Shown here one piece after another: positions 2,738 through 40,617 of a DNA stretch of 44,450 nucleotides. The notes beneath the pieces were generated by a model. That model was not told the origin of the DNA, made no database searches, and was given only the letters and a program-made list of their open reading frames with translations. The position numbers and the translations under genes are program-made. Source of the stretch: a virus; the UHGV virus genome UHGV-0157893. The stretch is one strand, 5' to 3'. Position 1 is the first letter of the stretch. The number at the start of each line of letters is the position of its first letter.

Positions 2738-5700
2738 GCTGTCGTTGATGTTCTAAATGATCCGGTGCCTCTTGCTACTATCATTGTTGGAGAATACAAC
2801 GCGGTACAATATGCGTATCCTTCAGATGATGATGTTTGAGGACAATATATTTTCCCGATAATATCTGATGCTTTTAAACCAGAAAAAGCGCATTGCACTG
2901 TTAATGTGCATCCACCATAAGGCACGTAATATGAAATTGTTTTGTTTTTATCTCCGCAACTAAACGTTACGTTATAAGTGGATCTATATTCACCAGACAT
3001 TAATGAAATAGTCGCCATAAGCATAACTGATTTCGTCAATGCATTATCCGTGCTGTCTTTATATGTGATGGTTGCGCTATAACTTCCGTTATGCCCAAGC
3101 ACTCGATCTGGACCAACCCCCATGTTAGCAACGTCACCGACAAATGACTTTGCCTCTACTGTACCTTTAAACTTCCCGCTTGTGGCCTGAATCTCACCAG
3201 TGAATTTACCAGATGTTGCGTACACCGTACCGCGTACAGTGACGTTGTTGAACTCCGCATTGCCGTTTTTATTTAGCATCCAGCCAGCCGAACCAGCTTT
3301 ATAGTTGGTTGACTGAATTTGCTGCGCAATCTTCGCGGTAGTGATTGATGCGTCTCTGATCCACGCATCACGGATGTAGCAAGCACCGTTAGTAACATAG
3401 AACGGGGTCTGATAGGAGCCACCTGCCGCAGTCATAAGCACGAAACGGTCAACGAGGAAAATACACTGCGATTGAACGTTAGTCCCGCTACCAGTAAGGC
3501 CGAGCGACATTCCTGTAGCGTATTTCATACCGTTTTTATCAGTGGCAATCTTAATTGAATATGACGCATCAACGTTACCTTTGAAGTCAGTCAGTGCTTT
3601 TGATGTCGTTTCTATCGCCGTTGTGTTTCCGTTAATAGTTACTTTCAACTGGTCGATTCTGGTTGACAATGCCTCGTCTGCCGTTGCCATAGCCTGTGAC
3701 CATTCCGTGATGCTTGAGTTTACATCGTCGAAAGATGCCGAGATCTGGCCAAATTTTTCCGCGCTTGATGTTTCATGCGTAGAAAGTGCAGTTGACACTT
3801 CGGATACTTTCGAATTAATCGTACTGGTAAGCGATGAGTTAAGGCTGCTGATTGCGTCAGTGCGTGCATTCTTCTCATCTGCGATCGCTTTATCCATCCT
3901 GGTTACGTTGCTTGTCACCTTGCTATCGAGCGTGGAAATTGACGCATTAACCCCGCTAATAGCTTCTGCGCGTGCGCTCGCCTCATCTGCGATTGCTTTA
4001 TCAAGACGGGAAACGCTCGCGTCGGTTTTGCTTTCAAGACTACTGACGCTGGCGTTAACGTTGCTAATAGCTTCTGCGCGTGCGCTCGCCTCATCTGCGA
4101 TTGCTGTGTCTACCCTTGCTATTTCCGCTTTTGTTTTTGTTTGTCCTTTCCTGTATTTCGCCTCAATAACAGTGCTCATCTTGCTTTGCGCCATTGAGTT
4201 ATTAATAAGCGCCAGAGATGCGTTTTGCAGACTTGCTTTCGCCTGATCTATCTCGTCGCTGTTTTTATCAACCTCACTTTTAACGCCGCCAAGCGTCGCG
4301 CTGATACCTGATATCGCCTGAGCACGTGCGCTTGATTCATCAGCGATAGCTTGATCAAGACGGCTAACACTGGCATTTGTGTTATTTTCAAGCGTTGTTA
4401 AATCAGCTTTAACCACTGTTATTGCGTCGCTTCTTGCCTGCGTTTCATCTGATATTGCATTATCGAGGCGCTTAACGCTGGCGTCAGTTTTCTTGTCAAG
4501 TGTTGAGATACTTGCGTTCACGTCGCTGATAGCCTGAGTACGCGCACTTGTTTCGTCTGCAATTGCCTGATCAAGACGGTTTACGCTGGCGTCAGTTTTC
4601 TTGTCAAGATTGCTTATTGAGGCATTTACACCGTTAATAGCTTCAGCGCGGGCGCTGGCCTCGTCAGCTACTGCGCGTTGCACATTAGAGATCTGACCTT
4701 TAAGGTTTGTGTCCATCACATTCATTTCTGCCGTGATGGTTTCCAGTGATTCCGCTGTCGCTTTTTTCTCTTCAGCGATAACGTTGTCAATGCGGTCAAT
4801 TTCCGCTTTCGTCTCTGTCCTGCCTTTCTTGTACTGAGCGGTAAGAGTTACGCGAGTGTTAGTCTGTGCAAGCGAGTTATTAATAAGAGCAAGTGAGGCG
4901 TTTTGCAGACTTGCTTTTGCTTGCGCCAGTTCGCTGCCAACTTTTTCGCTAGACACCTCCAGCGAGTCGATTCTCGACTCATGCTGTCCAATATCATCGG
5001 CGTTTTCCTTAACTTTTTTATAAAGATCTTCCGTTTCTTTTTTGAGCGTATCAGTATCAGCTTTTATTGATCCTGTTTCTATGGTTAGGTTGTCAGTTTC
5101 AGTCCTTAAATCGTCAGTTATGTTGGTCAGATTATCAGTTGCAGCTTTGAGGTTGTCAGTAGCAGTTTTAAGGTCATTCGTAGCGCTTTCGATAAGATCA
5201 GTGCGGTCGCCTAGATCTTTAATGTCACCAACCATTTCTTTAAATTGTTTGGAATTCATTACGTCTTTGGTGACGTAATCGGTAATTTCATCAAAGTTTT
5301 CTGTTGGCTTACCTGACGCTTCCACAAAGTCAGACACACCAAAAGCGTTACGCGCGCGCACATAAACGTAATATGTGTGACCTGTATTCATGCCGCCAAA
5401 CGTCCACTGATGACCACGCCCGGTATATTGTGCTTTAGTGGTTATTGATGCCGGATCAGTGATCTGCGTTTCACCTGAGTAATAAAACTCGTAACTGGTA
5501 TCAGTGGTGAGCGTTGTTCTGCTGATCGGGTAAACTGTAGCCTGGAATACACCGGGAACCCAATTAACGCCAACTGGGGCCGCTGGTGCGCCAATAACCA
5601 GATCGACAATGCTTTCCGCACCCTTCATGCCCGTGTCATTTCTGCCACGAATGCCTAATGAGTAGTTGCCAGCATCAATGCCATAAAAATCATAACTGTA

Positions 5701-23669: not shown

Positions 23670-25148
23670 TTAAAATCCGCGCAGGCGCTTAGGTAACATG
23701 AGGCCCATTGCCTGCGGCTGGCTTAATTCAGTGATACCCCATACCATTGCGTCGAGGCGGTCAGGTGATTTTTTAGCGGTAGCTGGAACGTATTCCATCA
23801 TTTGATTTTCCAGCGTGTACAGGCTGCCTGTGTGGGCCACCCTTCCCTGTGCATACAGTGCCGATATTGGCTCGGCGCGGGCGAATTTACCCTTGCTTGC
23901 GTGCACCTTAACAATGCGGCCTTTGAATCCGGCGTTACGTAGCGTGGCCTCTGCCATTTCGCCGCCCTGGTTTGTTTCGATAACTATCGCGTCAGCTTCA
24001 TGGATGTTGTAGGCGTTCATTGATGCCTGCGCCCAGTCGTTAGGAGACATACGGCCTGAGTAGTCGCCATCAACAGAATACTGAGCATTTTTACCGCCAC
24101 CGTAAGCGGAACATGCAACGATCCCCGTTTCGTCCGATTCTTCCGATGATGTTGTAGCCGGGTCGATAGCTATTACCGTGCGGATCTTGTCCTGCGTTAT
24201 CTGCATCCGGTGCGCTGCGGTTATCATGGCTTCAGTCCACAATGCACCCTCTTCGTCGAATTTACGCGGGCGCTGCATGTACTGGGCCTCGAATGACCGC
24301 CTGTGTGCTTTCAGTCCAGCTTCATGAATGTCATTGTGCTTTTTAGGCCACAGCCATCCATCAGGCAGGTTGTGAGGAATGGGTATTGCGAACTCGTTTT
24401 CAGGGTACAAATCCCTGTAGTCAACGCTATTGTCGATCTTCACTGGCAGGTTAAGGTGATACCACTTCTCACCGCTTCCACCTCGTAACAGGTAGCCGGA
24501 CAAATCATCGTAGTGGATGCGCTGCATGATGACGATAACAGGCGTTGTTTGCACTGCCAGACGTGAAGCAAGTGTGTCGTTATAGTTTGTGTTTACCTGC
24601 TTTCTCACCACGTCAGAGTAAGCGTCAGCGGGTTTTAATGGGTCGTCGATGATTAACGCGCCGTTAAATCCCGGCTCCATATACCCAGCACGGAACCCAG
24701 TTACCTGGCCCAGCGATGACGTTGCATACACGCCGCCACCGTATTCAGTCCACCACATCGATTTCGAGTTGGCATCGTTGCGGATCTTCATGGGCCACAT
24801 TGCCTGATAGTCAGGCGTACAGATCATGTTTCTTACAGTCGAGGAATTGAGTAACGCCAGGTTGTTGGAATAGGAAACGTGAAGGAATCTTGTGCGGGGA
24901 TTTATTGCGAGGGACCGCGCCATCATGTTGATGGTAGCGATCATGGTTTTACCGTACCCTGGGGGAATGTTAATGATGAGGCGGGTTATCTCACCATTAA
25001 TAACGCGTTGTAGTGCATCGCGGATAGCTATGTGATGACCTGAGACAAACATCTTCGTACCGTTTGCTTGCTTGTAGAAATAGCGGTTGAAAAACAGGCC
25101 ATCGTTTTCACATTTGGACTGAATAACTCGTTCTTTGATTGTCAACAT
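23670..25148 (-). CDS. terL: Terminase large subunit
   Basis: ATG 25148 (track start is GTG 25154), GAGGTG RBS; Walker A-like PPGYGKT, Walker B-like LIIDDP, C-terminal nuclease-type acidic motifs. Confidence 0.85.
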   Translation of the reverse strand: MLTIKERVIQSKCENDGLFFNRYFYKQANGTKMFVSGHHIAIRDALQRVINGEITRLIINIPPGYGKTMIATINMMARSLAINPRTRFLHVSYSNNLALLNSSTVRNMICTPDYQAMWPMKIRNDANSKSMWWTEYGGGVYATSSLGQVTGFRAGYMEPGFNGALIIDDPLKPADAYSDVVRKQVNTNYNDTLASRLAVQTTPVIVIMQRIHYDDLSGYLLRGGSGEKWYHLNLPVKIDNSVDYRDLYPENEFAIPIPHNLPDGWLWPKKHNDIHEAGLKAHRRSFEAQYMQRPRKFDEEGALWTEAMITAAHRMQITQDKIRTVIAIDPATTSSEESDETGIVACSAYGGGKNAQYSVDGDYSGRMSPNDWAQASMNAYNIHEADAIVIETNQGGEMAEATLRNAGFKGRIVKVHASKGKFARAEPISALYAQGRVAHTGSLYTLENQMMEYVPATAKKSPDRLDAMVWGITELSQPQAMGLMLPKRLRGF

Positions 25149-25150
25149 AA

Positions 25151-25636
25151 TCACACCTCGTCTTCTACTTCCTGGACGATGCGGGCGATCTCTTCTTTCG
25201 TGACTTCAACCTGAACGGGCGCTTCTTCCTTGTTGCCGACGATCTCCTGTGTGACGCGTTCGCCGTATTTGCGCGGCTGAAGTTTTGCCAGTAGCCACTT
25301 GCGCGTTTCAATCATTAGTTGGTGGCGTCGCAACTGATCTTTATCTGCGTTCTCTGCTGCATCAGCCAGATCGATGATTTCATCAGCCAATACCTCGAAG
25401 CCGATCTCCTTCGCGCGCGCGTACATGATCGAGAATTCCGGTACATCCCTAAACCATTTCAGGATTGTGGAACGGGTAGGCATACCAGGCATTTTCGAAA
25501 TTTTATTAATACTCTGACCATCCGCCACCAGTTCACAGATTTCTAATGCTTTTTCTTCGGTATAACCATGCGGACGGCCCACCTTTTTAGCGGCTGGCTT
25601 TTTATCGTCAGCCTTTGCCTTTTTAGTGCGGGCCAT
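25151..25636 (-). CDS. terS: Terminase small subunit
   Basis: ATG 25636 with GAGGTG RBS; Lys-rich N-terminus then HTH-like KALEICELVADGQSINKISK; stop abuts terL start. Confidence 0.7.
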   Translation of the reverse strand: MARTKKAKADDKKPAAKKVGRPHGYTEEKALEICELVADGQSINKISKMPGMPTRSTILKWFRDVPEFSIMYARAKEIGFEVLADEIIDLADAAENADKDQLRRHQLMIETRKWLLAKLQPRKYGERVTQEIVGNKEEAPVQVEVTKEEIARIVQEVEDEV

Positions 25637-25647
25637 AATTTCACCTC

Positions 25648-25734
25648 TCAAAACCATTTGCACAGAATATATAAACACGCAATTAATGTTGCGCAGTATG
25701 TTAATACTTCCAACCAGTCGAATAGCTCTTTCAT
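25648..25734 (-). CDS. Tiny hydrophobic ORF 6 (28 aa, predicted single TM helix)
   Basis: ATG 25734 with AAGGG RBS; MKELFDWLEVLTYCATLIACLYILCKWF; stop TGA 11 nt before the terS RBS. Confidence 0.45.
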   Translation of the reverse strand: MKELFDWLEVLTYCATLIACLYILCKWF

Positions 25735-25744
25735 TGTTTACCCT

Positions 25745-25789
25745 TTATGCGAAGAAAACGATAACTACTAACAACGTGCATGTAGCCAT
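25745..25789 (-). CDS. Tiny hydrophobic ORF 5 (14 aa; weakest of the array)
   Basis: ATG 25789, weak RBS; MATCTLLVVIVFFA. Confidence 0.2.
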   Translation of the reverse strand: MATCTLLVVIVFFA

Positions 25790-25805
25790 GATTAAGAAAT
25801 CACTG

Positions 25806-25880
25806 TCAGGCATTGATAATAAACCCCACAATAACAACCGCCGCGATACATACGAATAATACAGCTTCGATAGTTTCCAT
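25806..25880 (-). CDS. Tiny hydrophobic ORF 4 (24 aa)
   Basis: ATG 25880 with AGGTGA RBS; METIEAVLFVCIAAVVIVGFIINA. Confidence 0.45.
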   Translation of the reverse strand: METIEAVLFVCIAAVVIVGFIINA

Positions 25881-25888
25881 ATATTCAC

Positions 25889-25957
25889 CTATTGAGTCAG
25901 CGCGGTCATGGTAAGAACAATCGCAACGATCAGGAAAAAGAAATCAAGCCATTTCAT
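25889..25957 (-). CDS. Tiny hydrophobic ORF 3 (22 aa)
   Basis: ATGA start/stop overlap with ORF 2; GGGAG RBS; MKWLDFFFLIVAIVLTMTALTQ. Confidence 0.45.
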   Translation of the reverse strand: MKWLDFFFLIVAIVLTMTALTQ

Positions 25958-26034
25958 TTTTTAAACTCCCGGTATACGTCAACGGCAATGACTACAACTA
26001 CAGCCACCAGCAATAGCATTTCGTATGCGTTCAT
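25954..26034 (-). CDS. Tiny hydrophobic ORF 2 (26 aa)
   Basis: ATG 26034 with GAAGGTG RBS; MNAYEMLLLVAVVVVIAVDVYREFKK. Confidence 0.45.
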   Translation of the reverse strand: MNAYEMLLLVAVVVVIAVDVYREFKK

Positions 26035-26044
26035 GTGAACACCT

Positions 26045-26119
26045 TCAGCTTTCAATGAATATCATGATCGCCAGCCATACAGCGACGCAGGCAGAAAGGG
26101 TAATGAGCGGGTCAATCAT
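26045..26119 (-). CDS. Tiny hydrophobic ORF 1 (24 aa)
   Basis: ATG 26119 with GAGG RBS inside the 3' end of the upstream gene; MIDPLITLSACVAVWLAIMIFIES. Confidence 0.45.
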   Translation of the reverse strand: MIDPLITLSACVAVWLAIMIFIES

Positions 26120-26121
26120 AA

Positions 26122-26706
26122 TTAGCCTCGTTTAAAGCTCATCACACGCGGCACATACGCATCTTTTGCTTTAGGCTTACGTTTGCCTTTCTTAGCTGGT
26201 TTTTTCTCTTCTTTCGGCTCCTCTGCCTGCTCTACTGCCTGCTCTGCTGCATCAGTAGCCTTCTCTGCCTGCTCTAATGCCTTCTCTACGACTTCAGCGG
26301 CCTGCATTGCTGCCACCTGTGCTTCATTTGATTCCGCCAGGATGGGGAAGAATGCGTCAAAGATACGGCCTACCATGTAAGCGTAAGTCTCGTTTGCCGG
26401 ATGGCTGGGATCAGTGGTCGCTACGACGCCCACATCACTTAGAACGTGAAATGTCGTGTGCGCCGCTTCATGTACCAGCGTTCCTAACTCATTGTCGAAT
26501 ACTGCGATCACGTAGAAGTTACCGCCTTTCTCGCCAGTGCAAGTAAGCGTCAATCCTCCTGCCAGTTCGAAATCAGGTTCGATCGGAATTCCTGCCTTTT
26601 CGCAAAATTCATAAAACATCTCGCGGGTCGGGCAAAAGAAAACGGTTGTATGCTCAAAGAGCGGGATCTTGAAGTGAGGCAATTTTAAGCCTTTACCCTT
26701 AGCCAT
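26122..26706 (-). CDS. Hypothetical protein with HExxH metallopeptidase-like motif and Lys-rich tail
   Basis: ATG 26706 with AGGAG RBS; 194 aa; LVHEAAHTTFHV motif; C-terminus EEPKEEKKPAKKGKRKPKAK. Confidence 0.55.
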   Translation of the reverse strand: MAKGKGLKLPHFKIPLFEHTTVFFCPTREMFYEFCEKAGIPIEPDFELAGGLTLTCTGEKGGNFYVIAVFDNELGTLVHEAAHTTFHVLSDVGVVATTDPSHPANETYAYMVGRIFDAFFPILAESNEAQVAAMQAAEVVEKALEQAEKATDAAEQAVEQAEEPKEEKKPAKKGKRKPKAKDAYVPRVMSFKRG

Positions 26707-26967
26707 CAGAATAATCTCCTGTCTGGTTTGCTTTTACTTCCTGTTTATCCATTGCCAGGAATGATATAAAACACTGAAAACGGCGCTTCGTGAGTACCGT
26801 TTCCGGGATTTTATAAAGTGGGCGCTTTCTTCTACCCAGGTAGCGCCGACCTGTTAATGGGACTGTTGATCCGGTATTACGTGTTTTTGACTATTCCGCC
26901 GTCGCTCGCGGGAAGGATTGGCCCGGTTATGGCTGGCTGGCGGAAACGGCGACACGTCCACGCGCTG

Positions 26968-27450
26968 TTATTCTTTGCGTAAGCACTGCGTTTTGATGTA
27001 GTCCTGTAGGCCAGTGATCTGTGCGTCTTTCGTTTTTAGTTGTTCTCTGAGGGATAGATAAGCTGATTCAGCTGATTTAGAGAGTTGGCAGGTGGCTCCA
27101 TCAATGCGGCTGGCGGTTCCTGCGGAGTCGGACACTCGCACGGGTATTGCGTTGACGCGCAGCCTGATAGTGCCGTTATCAATGCCAGTGCGCAGATCGG
27201 CAATGTCAGATCTGATAGCTTTAATCTCATCGTGATACCTCTTATCAAGTTTTGACAGTTCGGCGTTTCGCTCCTTCATCTGCTGAATAGTGTTACTTGC
27301 TGTTTTCAGTGCGCCTTGCGTGGTCGTTAATTCTTCCTGTAACCTTGTCGCCTCACTCTGGTAATGGCATGTTACGGCTGTAAGGCTGGCAATGATGCAA
27401 ACAACAGCGGCGATAATTAACGCCTTCACCTTGTCCACGTTTCCCCCCAT
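26968..27450 (-). CDS. Rz: Spanin, inner membrane subunit (Rz)
   Basis: Track start TTG 27456; ATG 27450; N-terminal TM helix then coiled coil; follows endolysin. Confidence 0.75.
27036..27230 (-). CDS. Rz1: Spanin, outer membrane lipoprotein subunit (Rz1), embedded in Rz
   Basis: ATG 27230 with AAGAGGT RBS; lipobox LSGC; Pro-rich mature region; fully inside Rz in another frame. Confidence 0.7.
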   Translation of the reverse strand: MRLKLSDLTLPICALALITALSGCASTQYPCECPTPQEPPAALMEPPANSLNQLNQLIYPSENN

Positions 27451-27917
27451 TCGCAAACGGCATATTCAACATCACGGCGGTTTACCAGGCCTTGCCACTT
27501 CTTACCGCCAGCGTATACCCAGCGTTTAAGCTGTGCGCACGCTTCTGATTTCTTGCCGTCATTGAGTAGCTTTAATAAGGTTGATGTTTTGAAGTTGGTT
27601 GCGCCTACGTTATAGGCGAATGAATAAAGTGCTGCGCGGGTAAAATCTGATACTTCGACTTTGATATATGGGTCAATCGCTTTTGCGGTCTTGTGTAGAT
27701 CTTTATTTAACAAAGCATCGCATTCTGATTGCGTGTAAGTCTTGCCCAACATGATGTCTTTTCCGGTGTGACCATAGCAAACAGTCCATACACCAACAAC
27801 ATCACGATAAGGATCGTATTCCACGCCCTCTAATGGCTTAATCATCACCGCCGCAATAGCGATCGCCCCACCAGCCGCCGCCGCAACAATTTTGTTTTTC
27901 AGCGATTGGCTAATCAT
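27426..27917 (-). CDS. SAR endolysin (T4-lysozyme-like, GH24 type)
   Basis: ATG 27917 overlapping holin stop; N-terminal Ala/Gly-rich weakly hydrophobic helix (SAR-like); catalytic-region [23 protein letters not shown]. Confidence 0.8.
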
Positions 27918-27918
27918 G

Positions 27919-28119
27919 TTACTTATTCCCCATTCGCGCGTCGTGTTCCTCTTGCGCTCGCTTGTTCTCCTGTGATTTAAAGTAATAATTAACGGCAAAT
28001 GTGCCAATGGTTGATAGGATACCCACGAAGACGGCAACGTCATTTATGGTTATCGCACCGAAAAAAGCGGTTACGGTCCCAGTAACATAAGCGCACGCCG
28101 CCCGTATTCTGTCGAACAT
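27919..28119 (-). CDS. Holin (pinholin-like, two TM segments)
   Basis: ATG 28119 with GGAGGT RBS; 66 aa; two hydrophobic helices and charged C-terminus; directly upstream of SAR endolysin. Confidence 0.7.
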
Positions 28120-28140
28120 AGATTTACCTCCAACAAAGCA

Positions 28141-28164
28141 AAAACCCGGCACGGGGCCGGGTAG
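28141..28164 (-). terminator. Intrinsic terminator just upstream of holin (tR'-like position)
   Basis: Minus strand reads CCCGGC-cccgt-GCCGGG then TTTTTGCTTTG, 20 nt before the holin RBS. Confidence 0.6.
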
Positions 28165-28226
28165 TTACAGTTTCGCATTGTTAGGTAATATTTTAATCTG
28201 TTTGTTTTCGACCAACAAATACGGCT

Positions 28227-28454
28227 TTAACGATAAGGGCCAAGCAAACGAACAAGCCATTCTTTGTATTTGGCGGCGACGTGTTTAGGTGCAAAATATC
28301 CTTGCACTTCCTTACCGCCTCGCCACTCCCTTCTAAATTCGCACTCGTTTTGATACTCCTTTCCGCTTTTACTATCAAGCCAGCAAGCAGGCGAGTAACC
28401 TTTTTCACTTCCGAACCGATGCCATATTAATGACAGCAAAATCATTTCCTCCAT
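28227..28454 (-). CDS. Hypothetical protein
   Basis: ATG 28454; 75 aa; an alternative overlapping frame (28193..28408) cannot be excluded. Confidence 0.35.
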   Translation of the reverse strand: MEEMILLSLIWHRFGSEKGYSPACWLDSKSGKEYQNECEFRREWRGGKEVQGYFAPKHVAAKYKEWLVRLLGPYR

Positions 28455-28475
28455 ACCGCCCCCACAAATACGGCT

Positions 28476-28652
28476 TTACGCAGTTCTGTATATCAGTCCG
28501 TTATCAAGCAATGTTTGCATGTGTTCGCGATCCATGTCGCTTAATTCCCAATAAGGAACATCTTCATTCCTTATCATCACCTCTTCGCCTCTTACCAAAT
28601 AGGCGATGTCAAATACCTTATGCAAATAGATGCCATCTTCGATCTCGTTCAT
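28476..28652 (-). CDS. Hypothetical small protein (58 aa), paralog of upstream gene
   Basis: ATGA overlap with upstream stop; MNEIEDGIY... shares the IEDGIY start with 28649..28831. Confidence 0.45.
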   Translation of the reverse strand: MNEIEDGIYLHKVFDIAYLVRGEEVMIRNEDVPYWELSDMDREHMQTLLDNGLIYRTA

Positions 28653-38550: not shown

Positions 38551-38556
38551 ACATTA

Positions 38557-38646
38557 CCTCATATGGTATTCAATAAACCACCTGATAAACAGGCATAAGG
38601 CAATAAAACCCCAGCAACAGCACATATAAAACAATGTGTCGTCCAT
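38557..38646 (-). CDS. Possible tiny hydrophobic, Cys-rich ORF (29 aa)
   Basis: ATG 38646 right after upstream stop; MDDTLFYMCCCWGFIALCLFIRWFIEYHM; not in ORF track (below cutoff). Confidence 0.25.
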
Positions 38647-40503: not shown

Positions 40504-40617
40504 TCACATAGTAGTAATCAGCTTGATGATCGCCACCGTAATATAAAGCGATACGCTAAGATATAGCGCCGCGACAGCCAACGCCGCAGCCAATGCGGCA
40601 ATTTTTGCAAAGCTCAT
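40504..40617 (-). CDS. Tiny hydrophobic ORF (37 aa)
   Basis: ATGA overlap with the stop of 40614..40838; MSFAKIAALAAALAVAALYLSVSLYITVAIIKLITTY. Confidence 0.35.
   Translation of the reverse strand: MSFAKIAALAAALAVAALYLSVSLYITVAIIKLITTM

Follow-up and report, generated by a model that had tools for sequence, protein, structure and literature searches.

Small inner-membrane proteins of up to 50 aa, such as KdpF, AcrZ and YohP in the class described by Hemm, Storz and colleagues, consist of one helix, have their own Shine-Dalgarno site and were missed by annotation. Phages also have small accessory membrane proteins of lysis, examples of which are lydA-E of P1 and lysA/lysB of P2. Actinophage cassettes with several holin-like proteins have been reported, e.g. 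Xenia2 with four (PMC11385102). Conserved intergenic smORFs form a 'cryptic microproteome' in Enterobacteriaceae; they are mostly hydrophobic, and 28% of them lie head-to-tail with both neighbours (PMC11188072). Here we describe six tiny hydrophobic ORFs directly upstream of terS in a viral DNA of 44,450 nucleotides (UHGV-0157893; this whole stretch is called the window), which share the single helix, the own Shine-Dalgarno site and the escape from annotation with the small inner-membrane proteins.

Organization of the ORFs upstream of terS

The window is a mEp021-like ("mEpimmI") E. coli phage, as judged by nucleotide similarity and synteny. Over 25400-26400 it is 87-90% identical to mEp010, mEp021, mEp044, mEp515 and mEp554, with the same gene order. 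In mEp021 this order is Q, terminator, holin, lysozyme, Rz, terminator, gp49, a 485-bp unannotated gap and terS. The window has the holin gene at 27919-28119 (of 2-TMD class II type in relatives), the endolysin gene at 27426-27917 (its N-terminus, by eye, resembles a signal-anchor-release domain) and the spanin gene Rz at 26968-27456. Rz is followed by a 260-bp spacer, by a 194-aa homologue of mEp021 gp49 on the minus strand (26706-26122; HEAAH followed downstream by Glu, and a C-terminal tail rich in Lys) and then by the tiny ORFs. The gene for the small terminase subunit, terS (25636-25151, minus strand), matched PF20901 Sf6_terminase with E = 2.9e-36, and its homologues in mEp021 and MagusPhagus carry the terS annotation. 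An earlier note on this DNA had placed the tiny ORFs between the lysis cassette and terS. They do abut terS, but a weak terminator-like hairpin and the 194-aa gene separate them from the lysis cassette.

The same note had claimed six back-to-back ORFs, and six minus-strand ORFs of 22-28 aa were indeed found to tile 92% of the 485 bp between the 194-aa HExxH gene and terS. ORF1 (family A1; 26119-26045; 24 aa, MIDPLITLSACVAVWLAIMIFIES) starts 2 nt past the stop of the gp49 homologue and has GAGG 6 nt 5' of its ATG. ORF2 (family B; 26034-25954; 26 aa, MNAYEMLLLVAVVVVIAVDVYREFKK) has the Shine-Dalgarno sequence AAGGTG and a basic C-terminus. The start of ORF3 (family C; 25957-25889; 22 aa, MKWLDFFFLIVAIVLTMTALTQ) lies in the stop of ORF2, and the ATGA overlap at 25957-25954 is the junction that had been pointed out before. 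ORF4 (family H; 25880-25806; 24 aa, METIEAVLFVCIAAVVIVGFIINA) is preceded by AGGTGA, and its stop is overlapped by 8 nt (ATGCCTGA) by the start of ORF5 (family E; 25813-25745; 22 aa, MPDSDFLIMATCTLLVVIVFFA). ORF6 (family D; 25734-25648; 28 aa, MKELFDWLEVLTYCATLIACLYILCKWF) has AAGGGT as its Shine-Dalgarno sequence and stops 11 nt before the ATG of terS (25636). The range of 14-28 aa given earlier was correct for five ORFs but not for ORF5, which has 22 aa from the ATG at 25813; the 14-aa version is wrong since it starts at an internal Met (25789) and relatives keep the long form (MSDGDF...). Shine-Dalgarno sequences, previously counted in five ORFs, were present, but a Shine-Dalgarno-like match of at least 4 nt located 4-10 nt 5' of the start was seen in 6/6, the weakest being that of ORF5 (GGGG, spacing 10).

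To qualify as hydrophobic in a chance test, an ORF had an ATG start, a length of at least 20 aa and a 15-residue window with mean Kyte-Doolittle value of at least 1.6. By this definition the 485 nt held 6 ORFs on the sense and 0 on the antisense strand. In dinucleotide-preserving shuffles the maximum was 4, so that six were obtained in 0/5000, and the observed coverage of 92% was reached in 1/5000. Within the gaps between larger ORFs of the 44-kb window, the array was the sole cluster of such ORFs. A repeat search revealed only a weak 16-nt direct repeat, corresponding to 'DF(L/F)' codons common to ORF3 and ORF5, besides a 13-nt inverted pair that looks like chance. The Rfam scan of 25000-27200 gave nothing at E <= 1. 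The best peptide pair, ORF3-ORF5, had z = 2.4 against composition-matched shuffles, in agreement with the earlier view that the ORFs are not obvious duplicates of one another.

Conservation and selection of the reading frames

We compared 59 related loci, taken from 7 phage genomes, E. coli prophages and 48 IMG/VR contigs. The absence of conserved frames in related phages had been named as evidence against the ORFs; conservation was present, each family occurring in 25-57 of the 59 loci, and the synonymous-site pattern that had been asked for was seen as a frame-specific synonymous excess in all six ORFs. Pooled changes, which are per-column allele counts that ignore phylogeny and recombination, were 270 synonymous and 239 nonsynonymous (53% synonymous) against an expected fraction of 0.245 (p = 3.7e-43). 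With the frame offset by 1 or 2 nt, the synonymous fraction was 0.245 and 0.176, i.e. no excess. The synonymous and nonsynonymous changes were 17 and 9 in ORF1 (p = 7e-6), 20 and 15 in ORF2 (p = 1e-4), 18 and 16 in ORF3 (p = 4e-4), 20 and 13 in ORF4 (p = 2e-5), 18 and 25 in ORF5 (p = 0.01) and 16 and 12 in ORF6 (p = 6e-5). DNA homologues of ORF1 were intact in 57/57 loci, as were those of ORF2 in 57/57, ORF3 in 54/54, ORF4 in 25/25 and ORF6 in 56/56. ORF5 was intact in 38/44 loci, the disrupted copies having an ATG->ACG start in five loci and a run-on to 28 aa in one. An omega-like ratio of 0.29 for the tiny ORFs, as compared to 0.12 for terS and 0.10 for gp49, indicated looser selection than on the flanking genes. 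The comparison shows each ORF to be conserved as an open frame and to be under purifying selection at the amino-acid level. On the sequence evidence, the six ORFs are genuine micro-genes arranged as a cassette array.

Cassette turnover among related arrays

The homologous gap in the 59 loci measured 318-1154 bp and contained 3-13 tiny hydrophobic ORFs in collinear order. The 51 distinct arrays represented 43 architectures, built from about 25 peptide families of 20-47 codons across mEpimmI arrays. Families A1, B, C and D were nearly universal, and insertions or deletions between arrays were of whole ORFs. At locus L018 the TerS protein is identical, yet the array has 10 ORFs. A more divergent relative (gp49 68% identical) has a diverged array of seven tiny membrane-type ORFs.

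Paralogues and allelic forms were clear across this wider set. Family C (ORF3) is paralogous to cassettes J and L of other arrays (z = 5.4 and 5.8). Family H (ORF4) is replaced at the same position in other phages by the allelic form K (MNAIDIMLIV...; H vs K, z = 9.0), and divergent allelic forms at one position were likewise seen for D/S and I/R. Family E (ORF5) was found together with H or K in 36/36 distinct arrays. The copy of ORF6 in the window looks like a mosaic, with its N-terminal half from the common D allele and its C-terminal half from the S allele of mEp021. Comparison of the arrays shows that gain, loss, duplication and swapping of families involve whole ORFs, and the junctions map to stop/Shine-Dalgarno/ATG linkers.

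Matches by tblastn were limited to 7 mEpimmI phage records for ORF1 and to mEpimmI phages for ORF6. The search with ORF2 against phages returned no match despite the gene being present, because the low-complexity filter masks ORF2; absence by tblastn is therefore weak evidence for the most hydrophobic peptides. A conserved 23-mer of ORF1 had 0 matches in 185,579 species-representative genomes, and a terS peptide-pattern scan of genome contigs confirmed no relative; thus the group seems to occur in only a minority of E. coli strains (35 of 5,426 complete genomes). No comparable array was found upstream of the distant Sf6-type terS of HK620, Pseudomonas H66, Ralstonia Gamede or a P22-like Salmonella phage.

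Predicted membrane topology of the peptides

The peptides share a design of a short acidic N-terminus, mostly 15-19 uncharged residues and a neutral or basic C-terminus. Twelve of 25 families have Asp or Glu as residue 5 (p = 2e-8), K or R is present among the last 8 residues in 16/25, and C-flanks are mostly net neutral or +1. Within the window, the C-flank is uncharged in 4/6 peptides and ORF1 is without a basic residue. The description of each ORF as encoding one hydrophobic helix of transmembrane length was supported, the uncharged cores being of the length given above and the hydrophobic moment low (0.05-0.15), which means that the helices are uniformly hydrophobic and not amphipathic. 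ORF2 and ORF6 were borderline by Hessa-type insertion sum. By eye, GxxxG-like helix-packing motifs (GVFVG, GMMLG, GMAAG) occur in several cassettes.

All six peptides fit the sequence-level description of small inner-membrane proteins, with not more than 50 aa, one predicted TM helix, a ribosome-binding site and a conserved frame. By the positive-inside rule alone, the products are predicted to be single-pass N-out/C-in microproteins of the inner membrane, with a periplasmic N-terminus and a cytoplasmic C-terminus. Their insertion would probably be potential-driven and of YidC type, by analogy with Pf3 coat protein. The Pf3-type arrangement inserts N-out aided by the membrane potential.

Transcription and translation context

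The commonest inter-ORF distances were -4, +8, -8 and +11 nt, and across arrays the last ORF always stops about 10-11 nt before the ATG of terS. Stop codons overlap Shine-Dalgarno sites in TAGGTGA linkers. The Shine-Dalgarno sites, the 8-11-nt gaps and the 4- or 8-nt start/stop overlaps point to coupled translation. A consensus scan, which is weak evidence, found no sense-strand promoter in 25000-28600, and a scan of the same kind and weight gave 3 antisense promoter-like sites against 5.2 expected by chance. No strong terminator was found within the array, where a single weak sense-strand terminator-like match lies inside ORF6. Flanking promoter and terminator pairs, as for a phage moron, were not found around the array ORFs, which overlap or are spaced by 2-11 nt. 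We infer that the six ORFs would be translated in succession from a Q-dependent late transcript that also carries the holin, endolysin, spanin, gp49 and terminase genes.

Possible functions of the array

As a whole, an array of micro-genes for membrane microproteins that are translated together late in infection and may tune lysis timing is likely to be the best explanation of the locus. Its functional part, the tuning of membrane-potential-sensitive lysis timing, is put forward tentatively and is by itself a doubtful proposition. Late in infection the peptides would build up in the inner membrane and adjust the timing of membrane-potential collapse. This collapse would set the firing of the class II holin and the release of the endolysin with its apparent signal-anchor-release N-terminus, i.e. 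the timing of lysis, and different sets of cassettes would give different settings. The link to lysis is weak and comes from the 2-TMD class II holin of relatives and the SAR-like look of the endolysin N-terminus. Against it, the array lies outside the lysis cassette, beyond Rz, the weak hairpin and gp49; 4/6 peptides end without the charged tail that holins typically have; at E <= 1 the window peptides hit none of the holin models in Pfam or PHROG; and fast turnover of cassettes suits conflict genes better than a housekeeping lysis clock. Conflict is the main rival to lysis tuning, and we regard it as rather unlikely in the form of a toolkit in which each helix would block another inner-membrane target, be it DNA entry of a rival phage (superinfection exclusion) or abortive-infection effectors (anti-defence), with turnover reflecting an arms race. 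The great variation of cassette presence among near-identical phages (43 architectures in 51 arrays, 3-13 ORFs), the divergent forms H/K, D/S and I/R at one position, the relaxed selection relative to core genes and the GxxxG-like packing motifs seen by eye would all suit such a toolkit, as would the resemblance of the neighbouring gp49 to solo zincin domains of 'polyvalent' conflict proteins (PMC5512222). However, the near-universal A1, B, C and D look like a core function, expression in the lysogen, which classical exclusion needs, is not indicated as no own promoter was found, and mEpimmI phages already possess a lipoprotein exclusion system (PMC11893012). It is unlikely that the array is a fast-evolving modular battery in which each cassette acts against a different membrane protein of the host or of a rival phage, as a transmembrane 'decoy' or inhibitor. 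Cassettes would then duplicate, diverge and be exchanged at the conserved stop/Shine-Dalgarno/ATG linkers to give rise to new ones, and the array would amount, at the scale of microproteins, to an anti-defence or exclusion island as well as to a natural nursery of new genes.

The size and extreme hydrophobicity of the peptides also resemble those of Ibs and TisB, and hydrophobic peptides like the type I toxins are usually toxic on over-expression. We nevertheless consider it improbable that the ORFs encode membrane-depolarising type I-like toxins (Ibs, TisB, Hok-like) that kill or arrest the cell or serve as selfish addiction modules. Type I toxins stand alone with their own promoter and antisense RNA, but here no sense promoter was found, antisense sites numbered 3 against the 5.2 expected, and there was no Rfam match; moreover, the ORFs sit packed in an operon and look translationally coupled, and their products have acidic N-termini and lack the charged tail seen in most type I toxins. 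This very tight coupling, the end of the last ORF 10-11 nt before the terS ATG and the overlap of stops with Shine-Dalgarno sites would fit a relay in which small coupled cistrons hold ribosomes on the late mRNA and set the amount of TerS, the peptide sequence being incidental. Such a relay is very improbable, as purifying selection acts on amino acids in every family, the design of acidic N-terminus and hydrophobic core is kept in about 25 families, membrane character persists in diverged arrays, arrays of 3-13 ORFs imply that no fixed relay is needed, and the distant phages with Sf6-type terS named above are without such an array. Least credible, and close to negligible, is a packaging signal in the DNA or RNA, such as a pac site, with fortuitous ORFs, a proposal favoured by the position directly upstream of terS and by a terminase of the headful Sf6 type. 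The P22 pac site lies within the terS gene, and packaging in Sf6 probably starts in the terS region too. The idea of fortuitous ORFs in a pac/cos site, raised earlier as the counter-explanation, is contradicted by substitutions that track the codons of each ORF but not those of the shifted frames, and by DNA that is swapped cassette by cassette between phages with identical TerS protein; meaningful repeats and Rfam matches were also lacking. Between lysis tuning, our tentative choice, and conflict with competitors, the array itself offers a means of testing, as it does for the role of single-helix peptides in the late programme and for gene birth and shuffling.

Absence from annotation

The 485-bp gap was left empty in the curated genome of mEp021, and PGAP annotated 0 hydrophobic ORFs of the array in the prophage records examined. 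PHANOTATE and Pharokka merged or mis-framed several of them. Of the six window peptides, exact look-up in a collection of 15 billion proteins retrieved only ORF2, whose single record comes from JGI and is unnamed; of 4 other cassettes queried, 2 (the 47-aa and 34-aa ones) were present. We found no mention of these ORFs or peptide strings in the published literature. Mass spectrometry of mEp021 covered virion proteins only, and the mEpimmI group is reported to be as common as lambdoid phages in human gut samples (PMC11893012). Because the ORFs are too short for gene finders and curators, 6-13 genes per genome are missing from the mEpimmI group. The array offers an unusually clean natural case for the study of microproteins, with about 25 families under selection that vary in presence and in allele between otherwise near-identical phages able to grow on E. 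coli K-12.

Comparison with known systems

The peptides had been called unassignable to a known family, and we reached the same result, with no Pfam, PHROG or Rfam match. Pfam and PHROG scans of nine tiny peptides gave nothing usable. The best E value overall, 0.03-0.04, belonged to the 47-aa cassette N, absent from the window, which weakly matched lysis models (E = 0.04 for holin phrog_920 and 0.64 for a spanin family). Like holins, antiholins and accessory lysis proteins, the array products are predicted small membrane proteins of the late phage programme, several in a row near lysis genes, and plausible setters of the time of lysis. Known holins, however, are about 60-150 aa long, usually with 2-4 TMDs, end in a charged tail and are encoded beside the endolysin, whereas the array peptides have 22-28 aa and abut terS.

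The single-gene lysis proteins of ssRNA phages are very short and fast-evolving, have a membrane helix and can arise de novo. Their genes are single, often overlapping, belong to tiny genomes and each suffices for lysis, in contrast to the array phage with its full holin-endolysin-spanin set. Type I toxins (Ibs, TisB, Hok, Ldr) are similar in length and hydrophobicity and some are tandem in E. coli (ibs/sib, ldr), but the array differs in being operon-embedded, with another charge pattern, no antisense RNA indicated and no own promoter found. YidC-inserted N-out proteins of the Pf3 coat type have, like the array peptides, a short acidic N-tail, one helix and a neutral or basic C-terminus; as Pf3 coat is a 44-aa virion protein, the likeness is to the insertion mechanism only and no homology is claimed.

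The closest resemblance is to small inner-membrane proteins, a descriptive class and not a homology family, and to the cryptic-microproteome smORFs, which like the array cassettes span 20-50 codons and are detectable through purifying selection. Acidic N-termini and a near absence of basic residues set the array peptides apart as unusual among small inner-membrane proteins, with which no sequence relationship was found by Pfam or PHROG. Small inner-membrane proteins are mostly encoded by single, scattered host genes, whereas the array places up to 13 exchangeable cassettes end to end in a phage late operon.

The gp49-terS array in the window

Six back-to-back minus-strand ORFs were confirmed at 25648-26119, between the 194-aa HExxH gene (gp49, a homologue of mEp021 gp49; minus strand, 26122-26706), whose stop bounds the array upstream, and the small terminase gene terS (minus strand, ATG at 25636), which bounds it downstream. 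They are ORF1 (26119-26045, 24 aa), ORF2 (26034-25954, 26 aa), ORF3 (25957-25889, 22 aa), ORF4 (25880-25806, 24 aa), ORF5 (25813-25745, 22 aa, MPDSDFLIMATCTLLVVIVFFA) and ORF6 (25734-25648, 28 aa), spaced in this order by +10, -4, +8, -8 and +10 nt, with +11 nt from ORF6 to terS. The start/stop overlap claimed in the earlier note was borne out, as ATGA is common to ORF2 and ORF3; ATGCCTGA is common to ORF4 and ORF5. The 14 aa ascribed to ORF5 had to be corrected: an internal Met had been used, and the ATG at 25813 gives 22 aa, the long form kept in relatives. Shine-Dalgarno sequences were present at the correct positions, but in all six ORFs rather than in five (core match of 4-6 nt, 4-10 nt 5' of each).

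When the 485 nt were subjected to 5000 dinucleotide-preserving shuffles, none held more than four tiny hydrophobic ORFs, as against the six observed, and the observed 92% ORF coverage was reached in only one. The antisense strand of this gap carried no tiny hydrophobic ORF, and inter-ORF gaps across the 44-kb window held no second cluster. Gaps of the early region contained two single tiny hydrophobic ORFs, both on the minus strand and both preceded by a Shine-Dalgarno-like site (38554-38646, 30 aa, MDDTLFYMCCCWGFIALCLFIRWFIEYHMR; 40504-40617, 37 aa, MSFAKIAALAAALAVAALYLSVSLYITVAIIKLITTM).

Evidence for coding

For each peptide family, alleles were counted per column among distinct DNA sequences of modal length, with the consensus codon as reference for calling each one synonymous or nonsynonymous. 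The totals for 18 families, from counts that ignore phylogeny in loci where recombination is frequent, were 270 synonymous and 239 nonsynonymous changes (expected synonymous fraction 0.245 with transitions weighted 2:1; binomial p = 3.7e-43). In the same columns, the synonymous fraction was 0.245 in the +1 frame and 0.176 in the +2 frame. The excess was found in each family of the window (p = 7e-6, 1e-4, 4e-4, 2e-5, 0.01 and 6e-5 for ORF1-ORF6). The omega-like ratio was 0.29 for the tiny ORFs, and 0.12 for terS and 0.10 for gp49 by the same measure.

Intactness was determined by collecting all DNA homologues by blastn and inspecting the frame only afterwards, which guards against picking intact ORFs only. 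The frame was open in 57/57, 57/57, 54/54, 25/25, 38/44 and 56/56 homologues of ORF1-ORF6, respectively. Among the six disrupted ORF5 copies, one was extended to 28 aa and five, from near-identical arrays of one lineage (loci L007, L031, L035, L039 and L048), had ATG changed to ACG, the sole recurrent disruption among several hundred cassette copies. Judged from the sequence, this lineage would retain only the internal Met (14-aa form) or no product. In a relative with a gp49 identity of only 68%, seven diverged, still membrane-type ORFs occupied this position. With the synonymous excess confined to the true frame and nearly all DNA homologues intact, the frames proved to be genuine genes, as the earlier note had supposed, and the data show the region to be a cassette array of micro-genes under selection.

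Related phages and cassette turnover

The 25400-26400 region showed 87-90% identity to Escherichia phages mEp010, mEp554, mEp044, mEp021, mEp515, mEp013 and MagusPhagus, and had prophage matches in 35 of the 5,426 complete E. coli genomes. These are the mEpimmI phages, Nus-dependent non-lambdoid temperate siphoviruses for which a new family was proposed in 2025 (PMC11893012). In mEp021, a Q-like late regulator and small genes precede a terminator, the class II holin, lysozyme and Rz genes, a second terminator, gp49, 485 bp left unannotated, and then terS, terL and portal; the window follows this order. Rz lies at 26968-27456, and TerS is of Sf6 type (PF20901, E = 2.9e-36). Accessory DNA has a hot spot at the lysis-packaging junction, where the insertion site of HNH endonuclease genes differs among relatives: in mEp013 the gene follows the gp49-position gene (1015-1500), in L068 it separates terS from terL (4750-5253), and in L067 it lies between lysozyme and Rz (2252-2773).

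We compared 59 usable loci, comprising 17 from GenBank/RefSeq, 41 of 48 IMG/VR loci found with TerS, and the window. The gp49-terS gap ranged from 318 to 1154 bp (51 distinct sequences) and in every locus contained tiny hydrophobic coding-strand ORFs (median coverage 92%), with 3-13 per array, commonly 9-10, in 43 architectures. The six-ORF array of the window, to which an IMG/VR contig was identical throughout, is among the shortest. About 25 peptide families occur, in collinear order across arrays. Families of ORF1, ORF2, ORF3, ORF5 and ORF6 were present in 46, 49, 49, 36 and 48 of the 51 distinct arrays, with an allelic form of ORF6 (S) in 3 more; that of ORF4 was present in 23, and its allelic form K in 13 more. 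ORF5 was present if and only if ORF4 or K was (36/36); ORF4 (or K) and ORF5 are a coupled two-gene cassette.

In the multiple alignment, longer and shorter arrays were distinguished by the presence or absence of entire ORFs, and the breakpoints fell within linkers made up of stop, Shine-Dalgarno site and ATG, e.g. TAGGTGA-N4-5-ATG. Cassette families F and G are missing from the window, where ORF2 has the upstream context seen 5' of F elsewhere. Turnover is fast, since locus L018 has a TerS 100% identical to that of the window, yet a ten-ORF array. Set against L002 and L025, the window ORF6 (minus strand, 25648-25734) had an N-terminal half shared with the common allele (MKELFDWLEVLTYCA...), whereas its C-terminal half was close to the mEp021 allele (...ATLIECLYIVNKF), which suggests a mosaic of two alleles formed by recombination within a 28-codon gene. 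Some relatives also carry a hydrophilic acidic ORF of 47-48 aa after the final tiny membrane ORF and ahead of terS (MNDEELKIADEIRKALDSAENNETIYLSEQEVEKMMNEFKLRFGKDN; L008 2433-2576, L015 2044-2187, L016 2006-2152, L009 2752-2895); it is absent from the window and is the sole small gene in that position with PGAP annotation.

Predicted products

Representative peptides followed a common plan: an N-flank, 2-6 residues long, carries a net charge of -1 or -2, the core that follows is uncharged and mostly spans 15-19 residues, and the C-flank is absent, neutral or basic. In 12 of 25 families, the fifth residue was Asp or Glu (background D+E frequency 0.067, p = 2e-8). Hydrophobic moments were 0.05-0.15; the helices are therefore hydrophobic on all faces rather than amphipathic. 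Position-independent sums on the Hessa scale, calculated alongside control peptides, were below zero for ORF1, ORF3, ORF4 and ORF5, and just above it for ORF2 and ORF6. From the positive-inside rule, and from the well-established case of Pf3 coat protein as an analogy, N-out/C-in insertion aided by membrane potential is predicted.

The six peptides were rightly described as not obvious duplicates: against composition-matched shuffles, the best window pair reached only z = 2.4 and none exceeded expectation. Across all arrays, similar family pairs were D-S (z = 11.3), I-R (10.3), B-P (9.1), H-K (9.0), J-L (7.6), C-L (5.8) and C-J (5.4); thus both duplication and allelic divergence contributed.

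Expression and possible function

No sense promoter was found in 25000-28600 and no strong terminator inside the array, where one weak terminator-like match lies within ORF6. The Rz-gp49 spacer, where mEp021 has an annotated terminator, showed by eye only a weak hairpin. We infer that the ORFs are probably co-transcribed with the late genes. They would be translated by coupling, and late in infection the products would enter the inner membrane, each as a single-pass microprotein. The holin (minus strand, 27919-28119, 66 aa) is of the two-TMD class II type, and the endolysin gene (minus strand, 27426-27917, 163 aa), of which a 205-aa ORF-finder call is probably an over-extension, has from its likely start a Gly/Ala-rich hydrophobic N-terminus resembling, by eye, a signal-anchor-release domain. 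Class II holin/signal-anchor-release endolysin systems fire on a drop in membrane potential. If many helices drew on the potential or bound the holin, firing could come earlier or later, and our preferred but tentative proposal, which we do not rate as probable, is that the micro-proteins modulate lysis timing.

The main rival is that the array serves in conflict, for example in exclusion or anti-defence. This would account better than lysis timing for the rapid cassette turnover, but fits poorly with the near-universal core of four families and the lack of a promoter for expression in lysogens; we rate it slightly below lysis timing. Readings of the array as a type I toxin, a translational relay or a pac site all met with at least one contrary test result.

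Annotation and relation to known small proteins

The peptides matched no known family in Pfam or PHROG (zero matches at E <= 0.09 for any window peptide), and Rfam gave zero matches. In tblastn against 50,697 phage records, ORF1 and ORF6 matched seven mEpimmI genomes only; the 47-aa cassette N was found in MagusPhagus only. The conserved 23-mer of ORF1 had no match in 185,579 species-representative genomes, and four phages with distant Sf6-type terS had no comparable array nearby. A collection of 15 billion proteins contained ORF2 alone of the six window sequences, unnamed. The peptide strings did not occur in the searchable literature, and the ORFs go unmentioned in the mEpimmI paper (PMC11893012). 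PGAP called none of the hydrophobic ORFs in the records examined. On sister phages, PHANOTATE and Pharokka called some, frequently fused or misframed, with over-long or wrong-frame calls spanning two tiny genes (L001 1907-2110 and 2342-2485; L003 1566-1769 and 1747-1839); public records therefore both omit and misrepresent the array. These micro-genes have gone unannotated in a coliphage family that was described only recently, is prevalent in the gut and lends itself to experiments on K-12.

Conserved hydrophobic smORFs and small phage membrane proteins are known kinds (PMC11188072; PMC11323111), the latter source being a review of phage small proteins that does not include these ORFs. What is novel is the arrangement, in which up to 13 consecutive single-helix genes of 20-47 codons evolve as exchangeable cassettes.
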